From Picochlorum sp. SENEW3 (lineage: Eukaryota), in assembly GCA_034226945.1 (NCBI GenBank), contig CP120457.1:868001-932000 (forward strand): a stretch of 64,000 bases of DNA, written 5' to 3'. Every line of letters starts with the position of its first letter. Position 1 is the stretch's first letter. A program made the position numbers and the translations under genes. This document shows, in pieces, positions 17,739 to 35,333 of this stretch. The notes beneath the pieces were generated by a model. That model searched no databases. It saw only the letters and a program-made list of their open reading frames with translations, and was not told the origin of the DNA.

Positions 17739-19425
17739 ATGGATAGTTCTCAAGGAAAGGCGCTCCTTTCTGTAGGGGTGGATGCGATATTGGCACATCA
17801 GCCACAGCCATTGAATAAAACAAAGGTATGATTGCTCATTGTGTTGAATGCATACGTCTTTGTGGCATGCAGTCACACGGGGTTGCATTATCCACGCCGA
17901 ATGCCATTTACGATGATTCTGAGGATTGTTTCTGACACCAGTGACATCATTTCTGTAGATTATCTGTACTCTCGGCCCAGCCAGTCGTGATGTGCCCATC
18001 TTGTGTGAAATGCTTCGCTCTGGGATGAATGTGGCTCGCTTCAATTTTTCACACGGATCTCATGATTATCATCAGGAGACTTTGGATAATTTGAGAAAAG
18101 CTATGGAGGAAACTGGAATTATGGCTGCGGTGATGCTTGATACCAAGGGCCCAGAGATCAGAACTGGATTTTTGGAGGATGGAAAGCCAATTGACCTTCA
18201 GGTTGGGCAGGAAATCACCATTACGACTGACTATGAGGCGAAAGGGAACAGTAATTTGATTGCTATGAGTTACAAAAAGCTTGCTGAGGATGTGCACAAG
18301 GGATCTGTTATTCTTGTTGCAGATGGGTCCATTTCACTTGAGGTGATTTCGACCAATCCCTCTGCAGGCACTGTTCAAGCAAAGTGCTTGAACACTGCTA
18401 CTTTGGGAGAGAGAAAGAATGTGAATCTTCCAGGAGTGATCGTTGATCTTCCAACGCTTACTGAGAAGGATATTGAGGATTTGGTGAACTGGGGAGTTCC
18501 AAATGAGATTGATTTGATTGCAGCATCTTTTGTGAGGAAAGGGTCAGATCTGGACTATATTAGATCTATTTTGGGTCCAAAAGGTAGATACATCAAGATT
18601 ATCTCTAAAGTAGAGAACCACGAAGGTGTCTCTAATTTTGATGATATTTTGGACAAGTCTGATGCAATCATGGTTGCTCGTGGAGATTTGGGAATGGAAA
18701 TTCCTACTGAGAAGATCTTTTTGGCACAGAAATTGATGATCCAGAAGTGCAACTTGGCAGGAAAACCAGTCGTGACAGCTACGCAGATGCTTGAATCGAT
18801 GACAAAAAGCCCAAGGCCAACTCGTGCCGAGGCTACGGATGTTGCCAATGCTGTTCTGGATGGCACAGATTGTGTGATGCTTTCCGGAGAGACAGCTGCA
18901 GGTGCATATCCAATCCAAGCTGTCCAGGTGATGTCTAAAATCTGCCGTGAAGCCGAGGCATCGATCGATTATCACTCCTTGTTCAAAGCCATCATGAAGC
19001 GTACACCACTTCCAATGACTCCTCTCGAGTCTTTGGCATCATCAGCAGTGCGCACAGCTCACAAGGTCCAGGCATCTTTGATTGTCGTGCTTACACGCGG
19101 TGGTGCTACTGCAAGACTAGTTGCAAAATATCGCCCAACTGTTCCTATTCTCACAGTTGTAGTGCCGGTGCTGACCACAGACAATCTGACATGGCAGTGC
19201 TCCTCAGAGGCCCCTGCCCGTCAGTGTTTGATGTCCAGAGGATTAGCTCCAATCCTCGCCGAAGGATCAGCACGTGCATCAGATACTGATACAACTGATG
19301 AAATTTTGCATGCAGCCCTTCGACACGCCAGGGAAATGAAATACTGCAACGTTGAAGACACTGTCGTTGCTCTTCATAGGATTGGAAATGCGTCCGTCAT
19401 CAAACTTGTTGATATCAAGTCCTGA
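17739..19425 (+). CDS. PYK: Pyruvate kinase (cytosolic type); exons 17739-17825, 17959-19425
   Basis: KTKIICTLGP, ARFNFSHG, DTKGPEIRTG, MVARGDLG and ATQMLESM motifs. Confidence 0.97.
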
Positions 19426-32388: not shown

Positions 32389-32668
32389 ATTCTTCGCTGC
32401 ATGAGTTGCAAAACCGCGGAGGATTGATTGATATCACACAGTATCTATTACTAGATACATTTGAATGAAAATAGTATCGAGAATAATGCACACTTGTTAC
32501 GGGCCTATGAGTTTGAGTATACAATGCGCGTATGCTTTTTTCTTAAAAACAGTTTTCAAAACAAACTAATTAAGGCAGTTTTTTTGGATGGATGGAAAAG
32601 ATCACGTGCTCTACGGCATGATTGTGTATTAAAAAAAAAGAAAAAGTACTGTTTATTATTAGTGCAAC

Positions 32669-33469
32669 ATGGGAAAGCAGGGAAAGCAGAAGAAGAGAAC
32701 GAGGGACGCAGAAGAGGAGGACGAGACTCTGCATGCTGCGTCTGATGAGAGCGATACAATCGATACTACTAGTACTTCTACCAGTAGCAGTGAGGAGGAA
32801 GGTGATGACGATAGTGAGGGGGCTTTTGATACGATTGATGTAGACTTTGAGTTTTTTGACCCAGACCAGAGTGATTTTCATGGTATCAAGACGCTGCTGA
32901 CCAATTATTTGGATGGCAAAGAGTACAACTGTTCAGATTTCGTAGACGAGGTGATGGGTAGTCAAGGGAGCACGGTTATCAAGTGTGGTGATGGTGAGAA
33001 TGTGATTGGTATTGCTGCTGTGGTGGATATTGGAACCAGCTCCCTCTTTGGAGTTTTGGATTTTATCGAGGGAAAATGTCCTGAAGACATGTTGCCTGCG
33101 TTGAAAGAACTAAAGAATGCCAAGTTTATTGTGAGCGAAAGGTTGATGAATAGTCCACCACAGCTTGCACCGCCGCTGATGGATGCCATCTTGGATGGAC
33201 GAGAGGATGGGACGGAACATTACATCCTACTTGGAAGAGCGTACAAGGATAACAGTACGCCGTCCTCCAAAGGGTTCAAACTTATATTTGCTCTCCCAGA
33301 ATACCAGTTTCTGTATGATGCATCCAGAATCAAGTTTGAATTTGAAGTGGCTGCAGGTGGACACTATGCGCGAGAGAAGGATGATCTGAGGCCCATGCGC
33401 TTTGTCTGTTGCATTGATAGAACGTCATTGAATACAGCGCTTGGTGCTATGAAGAAAGTCATTCAGTAG
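32669..33469 (+). CDS. BCCIP: BCCIP/Bcp1 family protein
   Basis: Acidic N-terminus; VDFEFFDP..DFHGIKTLL and SERLMNSPPQLAPPL motifs. Confidence 0.88.
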   Translation: MGKQGKQKKRTRDAEEEDETLHAASDESDTIDTTSTSTSSSEEEGDDDSEGAFDTIDVDFEFFDPDQSDFHGIKTLLTNYLDGKEYNCSDFVDEVMGSQGSTVIKCGDGENVIGIAAVVDIGTSSLFGVLDFIEGKCPEDMLPALKELKNAKFIVSERLMNSPPQLAPPLMDAILDGREDGTEHYILLGRAYKDNSTPSSKGFKLIFALPEYQFLYDASRIKFEFEVAAGGHYAREKDDLRPMRFVCCIDRTSLNTALGAMKKVIQ

Positions 33470-33471
33470 TA

Positions 33472-33717
33472 AAGAAGAAGCTATTTATCAAAGGAGCAGC
33501 TCCAAACATGCCTTTCTATCAAACATTCAAAGAGCATGCAACAAAGCAAGCAAAGGTGTACAGGCCGAAGCGATGCAGAAACAACACCTGTATTAGAATA
33601 GTATGGAACAGGGATGTGAATGCTGCAATCAACATGATACTCAAGATGCTATGGAGAGTGCTGTGTGGAGACTGCCCTAGAGATTTCGCAAGAAGGCAAC
33701 AACAACATGATGAGTAA
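33472..33717 (+). pseudogene. Truncated Fanzor/TnpB-like nuclease C-terminus (transposon relic)
   Basis: KVYRPKRCRNNTCIRIVWNRDVNAAINM...GDCPRDFAR resembles the second zinc-finger half, RuvC-III (RDxNAAxN) and tail of Fanzor1; RuvC-I/II and the first CxxC are missing. Confidence 0.7.
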
Positions 33718-33820
33718 ATACATTTGATGAGTGCCATTGTGTGAAGATCATTTGCCTGCTACGTGTGTATGTATACGTTACATATCCTTGTGAAAAAGGA
33801 AAAAGAAAATGTAAACGATA

Positions 33821-33894
33821 TGCCCCCACACCGGATCGAACGGCGGACCTTGAGAACTTCAGTCTCACGCTCTCCCAAACTGAGCTATAGAGGC
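33821..33894 (-). tRNA. trnF: tRNA-Phe(GAA), intronless
   Basis: GCCTCTA TAGCTCAGTTTGGGAGAGC G TGAGA CTGAAGT TCTCA AGGTC CGCCG TTCGATC CGGTG TGGGGGC A folds as a full cloverleaf; oligo-T Pol III terminator downstream (A-runs at ~33793-33809 on +). Confidence 0.95.
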
Positions 33895-34508
33895 TTTGAA
33901 CCCGGGACCCATCGGTCACTGAGTCTGTAACATGTCATTTTTTCAAGATACAATACCCGTGTATTTTGCACGCCGAGGCTCCGAAATAGCGAATCAGACC
34001 GCCCCATGGTATGCTGAAGAAGCAAGAGAGTGCAAAAACCGGGGCCGACACAAAATTGATGTTGTGTGGGTGGCATTCTCGTGAGAAAACCCGGCTGCCT
34101 GTGCGACTGAGGAAGCTTGGGGTGTCAATGAGAAGCGCCCTGGTTCCTTCCTGGTGGCCCGTGCCTATCAGGAGACAGAGCAGTGGCCACCAGCTGGGTG
34201 TCCAGATACCATTCCAGGCATGGGAGCATTGCGCTCACTAAAAACTCACTCCCACACCTCGGGATGGGATCACCCAACACCTTGGCATCGACTGGTTGTT
34301 CTGGGACTAGGATCCTATGGCCTTTTTAACGATGACATCCTACAGAATTCCACTCTAGGAGCTCCTTTGCTCAAGTCAAAGTCAATCCGGATACTGGTTA
34401 CAAAACCAATCAAACAGAAGAAGAACATGGGCATGCGCAATTCAAAGGAGCAAGAAGAACAAGCAAACAAACAAAAAAAGAACACTATACAGCAGAAATA
34501 CAACTACA

Positions 34509-34946
34509 TCAGTCCTGAAGAAGCTCCAGTCTCACCATACATACCGGGCACTTGTTGCTCCTCTCCAACCATTCATACACACACTGCATGTGAAAGTGAT
34601 GCCCACATGCAGTGACAACCCTTGGATTCTCCTCATCATACATTTCTAGGCATGTAGGGCACACATCCTCTTCATTCTGAGAGAACATGGGTGAGGATAC
34701 AATTGCATTCTTGTCCTCAGATGCCCCATAAAAATCCGAGGAAATCCTCCGTGGCTGGACTATACCCTCTTCGCTCCTGCGGAGCAACCCAGCCCGTTCC
34801 TCGTCCCTCCTAGCCACCATGTGACTGTTCTGTACATAGTGAGAATCATCTCCTCCAAAGCAGCAGCAACACATTGTTTTGACTAAAACGGTCAGGAGCG
34901 TGTCGCCCCTCGAAATACTAGTAGGGCTACCACTGCTCTGCTCCAT
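34509..34946 (-). CDS. RING-H2 E3 ubiquitin ligase
   Basis: CPTCLE...CGHHFHMQCVYEWLERSNKCPVC; N-terminal Cys cluster. Confidence 0.9.
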   Translation of the reverse strand: MEQSSGSPTSISRGDTLLTVLVKTMCCCCFGGDDSHYVQNSHMVARRDEERAGLLRRSEEGIVQPRRISSDFYGASEDKNAIVSSPMFSQNEEDVCPTCLEMYDEENPRVVTACGHHFHMQCVYEWLERSNKCPVCMVRLELLQD

Positions 34947-35333
34947 ACCCGCAATGTGTATTTCAAACTATACAAATATGAGGGATATACAAGGGTGGTT
35001 GTTCTGCTCGCAGCCTGCTCCCTGTCCTCTTTTAATCGCCTCGTTCTAACTTTTGTTTTCTTCTTCTTCTTCCTCTCTCTTTCTCTCTCTTCCAGTACTA
35101 CTACTGCGACAGTGAATGCGCCTTTGTATCTAAAGTTCCGAAAAACTATGCTTTATTTCAAGCAGTGTCGTGAGACACATTGCCAATTCATGAGTGTGGG
35201 TTGAACCAATGAAACCAAGTTGGTTTCAGCACTATCCAACTCGTAAGAGATCTAGATCTCATGGGTCAATGCAATACTATTGATCGACAATGCGCTTGAT
35301 ACATCAACAGGAAAAGAATATTTAATAATAAAT

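Follow-up and report, generated by a model that had tools for sequence, protein, structure and literature searches.

A C-terminal Fanzor1 relic, very probably a dead transposon fragment, between BCCIP and tRNA-Phe in a Picochlorum-type green algal genome

In the motif definition of Bao and Jurka (2013, PMC3627910), the Fanzor/TnpB proteins are recognized by the pattern D-X(125,275)-[TS]-[TS]-X-X-[C4 zinc finger]-X(5,50)-RD. According to the passages of Saito 2023 (PMC10432273) on Spizellomyces punctatus, the omegaRNA of this organism follows the Fanzor stop codon and precedes the 3' inverted repeat, and there are in addition 'ghost loci' that have no ORF and look like the omegaRNA/right-end region. 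For green algae, the Fanzor passages of PMC12633428 report diverse Fanzors of sporadic occurrence and identify a Fanzor element as the most abundant repeat of Auxenochlorella; a Picochlorum Fanzor is not described in those passages.

The locus examined here lies in a window of 64,000 nucleotides (the whole stretch of DNA that was analysed). The DNA is eukaryotic, densely packed with genes and rich in long uninterrupted frames, and its G+C content is 45%. Like the Fanzor1 proteins covered by the motif definition of PMC3627910 and those of the solved structures 9cer and 8gkh, the short frame under study, hereafter the relic, keeps the C-x4-C ... WNRD.NAA.N ending; unlike the proteins covered by that definition, it consists of the last ~75 residues, and the D ... 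[TS][TS]-x-x-C4 part is missing. It is comparable to the S. punctatus ghost loci, as these are portrayed in the relevant passages of PMC10432273, in having no working Fanzor ORF and in its right-end/omegaRNA position, and it differs from them in that coding sequence is kept and in that the search for a repeat-family copy, an inverted repeat or a conserved tail came up empty. We consider it very probable that the locus represents the dead remnant of a mobile element that carried Fanzor1, eroded in place and now drifting beside BCCIP. The features upon which this reading depends are as follows, three-digit residue numbers referring to an alignment and profile (A1) of eight full-length relatives of the relic.

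32669-33469, plus strand: BCCIP coding sequence (Pfam PF13862, E 2.1e-24), intact; left limit of the relic
33472-33717, plus strand: open frame of the relic, 81 codons (33472-33714) and a stop (33715-33717)
33541-33546, plus strand: deletion junction between T24 (33541-33543) and K25 (33544-33546), with 20 profile columns missing
33574-33591, plus strand: second Cys pair, C35-x4-C40, of the former C4 zinc finger; invariant columns, equal to C728 and C733 in A1
33604-33636, plus strand: WNRDVNAAINM core with the RuvC-III Asp motif; invariant W45, N46, R47, D48, N50, A51, I53 and N54
33718-33820, plus strand: tail of 103 nt between the relic stop and tRNA-Phe, the expected place of the right end or omegaRNA scaffold
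33821-33894, minus strand: tRNA-Phe(GAA), found by ARAGORN and by Rfam (RF00005, 54.9 bits)

The upstream neighbour encodes a BCCIP protein of 266 aa that terminates in a TAG codon at 33467-33469; when aligned with its closest orthologues, the protein (C-terminus ...MKKVIQ) stops where they do. It is 99% identical to one transcriptome entry and one EukProt entry, the next named match being that of Nannochloris at 36%, from which the source would be a Picochlorum-like trebouxiophyte. The frame of the relic begins 3 nt past the BCCIP stop, with recognisable Fanzor homology over ~33487-33702, and its translation holds ...KRC-RNNT-C-IRIV-WNRDVNAAINM...G-DC-PRDFAR...; the pattern that the first-pass annotation had read directly after the BCCIP stop (RC-x4-C-x4-WNRDVNAAIN...G-x2-PRDFAR) is thus present exactly. 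On the other side, the T-run behind the minus-strand tRNA falls inside the tail. Since no tRNA gene was found near any of the 60 Fanzor-type metagenome loci that were scanned (of 70), the tRNA-Phe neighbour looks incidental and not a feature of the family.

The ancestry of the relic was assessed by phmmer against 1.84 billion (1.84e9) representative proteins at a threshold of E <= 1e-3, which returned 17 proteins with E values of 1.8e-9 to 5.9e-4. Five of these are long, namely P0005 (985 aa, E 1.8e-9), P0007 (851 aa), P0011 (750 aa), P0013 (776 aa) and P0015 (808 aa), and throughout this set of 750-985 aa proteins (5/5) the match is confined to the last ~75 residues; the nearest full-length protein is 44-55% identical to the relic over the matched stretch. 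The Pfam profile PF07282 (Cas12f1-like_TNB, the old OrfB_Zn_ribbon) matched the relic at 15.3 bits (E 0.022) against a gathering cut-off of 26.3 bits, with the match spanning only profile positions 39-60 of 60, and among the 11 phmmer matches scanned with the same profile, five were above the cut-off, five below it and one without a match. A search of NCBIfam with the relic gave no match. When the relic alone was compared with the PDB, the only sequence match was to Guillardia theta Fanzor1; it lacks significance (E 1.2) but is located in the equivalent C-terminal position (residues 1053-1080 of the MBP-GtFz1 fusion chain, 9cer_P). The A1 profile matched GtFz1 (9cer) at E 4.3e-10 and SpuFz1 (8gkh) at E 1.4e-6, nothing else among the solved structures falling below E 0.1, and its alignment with GtFz1 takes in the GxDPGK RuvC-I region, the F-x-N-x-x-x-TDG-x-S motif and the C-terminal nuclease half. 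Alignment of the relic to A1 with hhalign gave 99.1% probability and E 1.1e-18 over 73 columns, and reaches well past the motif in both directions (APNMPF..., ...P.dF.R).

Taken together, the phmmer family, the matches of A1 to Fanzor1 structures and the hhalign result indicate that the relic descends from a Fanzor1-type gene, and, as judged from these alignments, the likeness is one of real homology in which the motif lies far beyond chance. The first-pass annotation had called the frame a Fanzor/TnpB nuclease relic and had suggested a comparison with TnpB/Fanzor profiles; the call is borne out, and specifically for Fanzor1, with the hhalign comparison among its support, although Pfam alone stays below its cut-off. 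A word-indexed protein search with the relic found no longer protein, and only P0002 as a near relative. Viral contigs gave no relative when the relic was the query, and with a full-length profile they yielded 23 loci, each of them distant (27-46% identity over 50-120 residues), which argues that no close viral source exists among them.

The extent of the loss can be described in some detail. The relic aligns to profile columns 683-777 of 800 and corresponds to the last ~95 residues of a Fanzor1-type protein minus an internal deletion of 20 residues, and about 90% of the nuclease gene is missing, all of it N-terminal. The gap at T24/K25 is seen in the hhalign alignment, in BLASTP against P0005, and in an alignment (A2) with P0003, P0009 and P0010; it is in frame, and it removes the RuvC-II Glu (..vDEFxTS..) together with the first CxxC of the zinc finger. 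The residues that are invariant in A1 (D518, E702, S706, C709, C712, C728, C733, R740 and D741) correspond to the D ... [TS][TS]-x-x-C4 ... RD motif as it is defined in PMC3627910, and the first five of them are absent from the relic. There is no RuvC-I Asp 125-275 residues ahead of the zinc finger, the sequence upstream of 33472 being occupied by the BCCIP coding sequence; the RuvC-II Glu and the [TS][TS] pair (..DEFxTS..) are missing inside the 20-column gap; and the C4 zinc finger is incomplete, with only the second pair (C35 and C40) kept and the first CxxC (C709 and C712) deleted. The RD motif that follows the zinc finger and carries the RuvC-III Asp is present as R47-D48 within WNRDVNAAIN. 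The surviving residues amount to half a zinc finger, the RuvC-III 'RD' motif and a C-terminal tail; such a remnant cannot be a nuclease. The relic is a fragment of a gene, not a member protein of Fanzor1.

No further piece of the element was recovered from the window. When the 17 relatives were compared with all 64 kb by tblastn, matches fell solely at 33466-33726 (E 4.7e-35 to 3.9e-8), with no other below E 0.01, which bears out the earlier statement that only the 3' portion survives. No second copy of the relic was found within the window, and there were no convincing inverted or direct repeats bracketing 33472-33820. A stray tblastn match at 18445-18531 (E 0.016-0.02) was taken as chance; it is antisense to an open frame of 488 aa, which by eye we take to resemble pyruvate kinase. 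That the relic might be the last exon of a live Fanzor gene is ruled out, given that BCCIP occupies the 800 nt ahead of it on this strand.

The same site could be followed in related organisms by aligning contigs from four public runs to 32600-34500, these runs being X13 (organism B), X15 (organism C), X17 (organism D) and X19 (an oligo-dT metatranscriptome). In X13 a single contig of 5,978 nt spans 32600-33894 and in X15 a single contig of 1,092 nt spans 32862-33951, both with the same order of BCCIP, relic and tRNA, and X17 covers the same ground in shorter pieces. The first-pass annotation had proposed that sister strains be compared for an empty site; the relic instead occupies the same site in three related organisms, and no empty orthologous site was seen among the contigs of X13, X15 and X17. 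Relative to the window, the X15 contig differs at 4 positions in 608 nt of BCCIP, 8 in 246 nt of the relic and 3 in 234 nt after the relic; these tallies use 15 of 18 single-letter differences and one contig per run, and with such small counts the rates are rough, the divergence of the relic amounting to roughly five times that of the BCCIP coding sequence. Five codons are altered by the 8 relic changes (A>S, Y>F, I>L, I>T and I>M, matching P0020) and two are changed silently, and five changed against two silent in 74 codons gives a roughly neutral ratio. Furthermore, X13 and X15 carry insertions of TT and GTGGCC at 33492 and 33495, 8 nt in total, which throw the rest of the ORF out of frame with its first seven, N-terminal codons, and both also have small indels in the tail at 33788 and 33818. 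This pattern fits an old insertion that would be drifting close to neutrally as non-coding DNA.

The contigs also drew our attention to a stretch of ~350 nt at 33957-34305, between tRNA-Phe and a minus-strand frame at 34509-34967, which is deeper than its flanks in all four runs (in X13, 155-440 versus 66 in the flanks). It is split into several diverged contigs, roughly 1-12% different, and its other copies run into unlike sequence past 34305; in X17 it is preceded by a run of 27 T. On either strand the predicted fold of the stretch is somewhat more stable than that of shuffled sequence (z -2.5 and -2.35). It has no credible Rfam match and no convincing ORF, and neither the window nor the fetched loci contain a repeat of it. 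A dispersed repeat or retroposed element of small size may account for it, or else an unrecognised non-coding RNA common to several 3' UTRs. An inverted repeat of 15 nt (33924-33938 / 34332-34346, 87% complementary, 393 nt apart) brackets this stretch, and since it is placed 20-30 nt outside the part common to the other copies it is probably a product of chance. No link between the multi-copy stretch and the Fanzor relic was found.

Several short frames in public data are comparable to the relic, in that P0002, P0003, P0004 and P0020 are likewise C-terminal ends of Fanzor present as short open frames with an internal deletion. Two of these, P0002 (96% identity, with 'transposase' as its source label) and P0020 (89%), are metagenome-derived, have the same 20-residue deletion and probably represent the same locus in sister strains. 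P0003 (60% identity, an open frame of 96 aa) keeps the 20 residues and the ...GDCPRDFAR ending and is without the Cys residues. The fourth, P0004, is WPT11031.1, a hypothetical protein of 104 aa from Picochlorum sp. SENEW3; as it is 49% identical to the relic, has its internal deletion at a different site and keeps different upstream residues, we regard it as a separate relic, and a member of its cluster, P0023, comes from a transcriptome. Extra contigs in X13, X15 and X17 match only 33604-33636 (at a likeness of at least 80%) with unlike sequence on both sides, and these come from a second Fanzor1 relic, a paralogue similar to the P0004 type (P0004, P0022 and P0023); in X15 the contig of this paralogous relic has a depth of 236.8, compared with 12.8 for the BCCIP locus.

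A wider scan of metagenomes found 70 loci at 37-63% identity to the relic, and the near-identical locus behind P0002 or P0020 was not among them. A long single frame is present in 4 of the 70; it measures 700 aa in three of them and 623 aa in the fourth, where the 5' end of the contig cuts it short. The full-length loci with available DNA hardly differ from one another, and their protein is 46% identical to that of the relic. At the DNA level, the fetched loci have no similarity to the tail of the relic, the motif core alone being similar. In many of the loci the short frame is the last coding block, with further Fanzor sequence ~300 nt upstream, and this spacing suggests an intron in many of them. 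In L030, L032-L035, L039, L046, L057 and L058 the upstream flank is at least 5.8 kb long, and several have only the last ~30-55 residues or no match to the long proteins. Solo C-terminal fragments seem to be a common form of Fanzor decay in other eukaryotes as well.

It is reasonable to postulate the following history for the locus. A Fanzor1 element, or its 3' part, would have landed in the short spacer after the BCCIP stop in an algal ancestor, and under strong deletion pressure it would have been eroded from its 5' side up to the stop of BCCIP, a conserved and essential gene; the halting of erosion at this stop would explain why the homology starts at most 18 nt from it. A further in-frame deletion of 60 nt would then have taken the RuvC-II Glu and the first Cys pair, possibly between two similar ..E-x-A-T.. 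codon groups that are visible in P0003. The remainder would persist because it falls within the BCCIP 3' UTR and the spacer that separates BCCIP from the tRNA gene, or has itself taken on this role; on this account the relic is probably transcribed passively as BCCIP 3' UTR, and the tail at 33718-33820 probably serves in the same capacity. The first-pass annotation had also suggested that the relic may be transcribed within the BCCIP 3' UTR, for which the oligo-dT metatranscriptome offers a weak hint in a contig of 236 nt over 33496-33729 (depth 9.7) alongside a BCCIP contig at 33077-33465 (depth 5.1); contigs from an RNA library prove neither transcription nor its ends, and the gaps in X19 (e.g. 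33752-33943) say nothing on transcript ends. It had further noted that the first plus-strand TGTAA past the BCCIP stop is at 33810, and the position is exact; the pentamer, however, is no commoner in the window than expected by chance (121 versus 120.2).

Persistence of this kind raises the question of whether the fragment has been put to use, be it as a small peptide of 69-81 aa with Cys residues or as a functional BCCIP 3' UTR/poly(A) region. The 81-codon frame is open in the window, in P0002 and in P0020 alike, the 6 amino-acid changes of P0020 are without exception conservative and its last 22 residues are identical to those of the window, and P0003 is open as well; the open frames, the conservative changes and the ...GDCPRDFAR kept in P0003 would leave room for some constraint. 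An exapted element would also be in keeping with the presence of the fragment at the same site in three relatives with a gene-dense genome, with an oligo-dT contig whose depth is similar to that of the BCCIP coding sequence, and with the transcriptome member of the sister relic cluster. Nevertheless, the ratio of changed to silent codons is that of near neutrality, the relic changes several times faster than the BCCIP coding sequence, and the 8-nt indel puts the N-terminal codons of the ORF out of frame. In addition, the frame has no Pfam or NCBIfam domain besides the sub-threshold TnpB zinc-ribbon end, and, starting as it does immediately past the stop of another gene, it is without promoter space of its own. 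On balance we consider exaptation unlikely, and the drifting fragment remains our preferred reading.

A second possibility builds on the guide-only locus of the first-pass annotation: the retained 3' end would yield an omegaRNA-like transcript for an intact Fanzor1 elsewhere in the genome, with the guide read from sequence beside tRNA-Phe. The ghost loci of S. punctatus, as described in the passages of PMC10432273 cited above, make such a guide-only locus a legitimate idea. The part that has been kept is that in which Fanzor/TnpB guide RNAs are encoded, the RNA-library contig covers 33496-33729, and full-length relatives do occur in public data (e.g. P0005, 985 aa). However, the predicted fold of 33640-33820 has a minimum free energy of -34.5 kcal/mol against a mean of -34.8 kcal/mol for dinucleotide shuffles (z 0.08), and 99 of 200 shuffles fold as well or better. 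The two small hairpins that had been pointed out in the expected scaffold zone do exist, and the fold pairs 33761-33778, but the region as a whole folds no differently from shuffled sequence. A search of Rfam over 33000-34600 at E <= 1 returned nothing but the tRNA.

The contigs of the three relatives also speak against such a guide. Depth bins over 33688-33815 in X13, X15 and X17 are at the single-copy level of the flanks; none of these runs holds another copy that includes the tail at a likeness of at least 80%, and no right-end boundary is shared, the extra copies having only the 33-nt protein-motif core in common with the locus. The shared right-end boundary that the first-pass annotation had proposed to look for is therefore not seen in these relatives, and neither the fold, nor Rfam, nor the contigs gave a conserved structured RNA at the right end that is common to the copies. 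Relatives differ by indels in the tail (33788 and 33818), no full-length protein comes nearer than 44-55% identity over the matched stretch, and there is no intact copy in the 64-kb window. A guide-only locus served in trans is consequently not supported, on the grounds of the unremarkable fold, the lack of an Rfam RNA, the single-copy tail and its indels, and we hold it to be very unlikely; the locus presumably has no guide-RNA function. Indeed, a single copy and the lack of a conserved 3' boundary are among the signs by which the first-pass annotation itself had set a dead relic apart from a guide locus, and the contigs of the three relatives accordingly place the locus with the former.

The two foregoing possibilities may also be combined, in that the fragment could be kept in a streamlined genome as a trans-acting ghost omegaRNA guide or as an exapted regulatory module of the BCCIP 3' UTR, and we assign this joint reading a similarly slim likelihood; if true, a guide locus of transposon origin would have become fixed at a single host site, and this in no fewer than three related organisms. 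Last, the notion that the motif is a coincidence in 3' UTR sequence unrelated to Fanzor, to which the sub-threshold Pfam match (E 0.022) and the single-sequence PDB match (E 1.2) might lend some colour, is refuted by a phmmer family drawn from 1.84e9 proteins whose long members are all matched at the C-terminus and by an hhalign alignment that extends beyond the motif on both sides, and its probability is negligible.

As a dead Fanzor1 fragment, the locus is an ordinary transposon fossil, whose value is mainly one of annotation and which calls for no new mechanism; were the tail to give a discrete guide RNA, it would instead be a fixed, host-retained guide-only locus and of real interest. The small, repeat-poor genomes of Picochlorum-type green algae once hosted Fanzor1, and at least two different fossils of it remain, the current label being 'hypothetical protein' for one and 'transposase' for another. 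The relic at BCCIP would moreover be a neat case in which deletion has pared a transposon back as far as the stop codon of its conserved neighbour.
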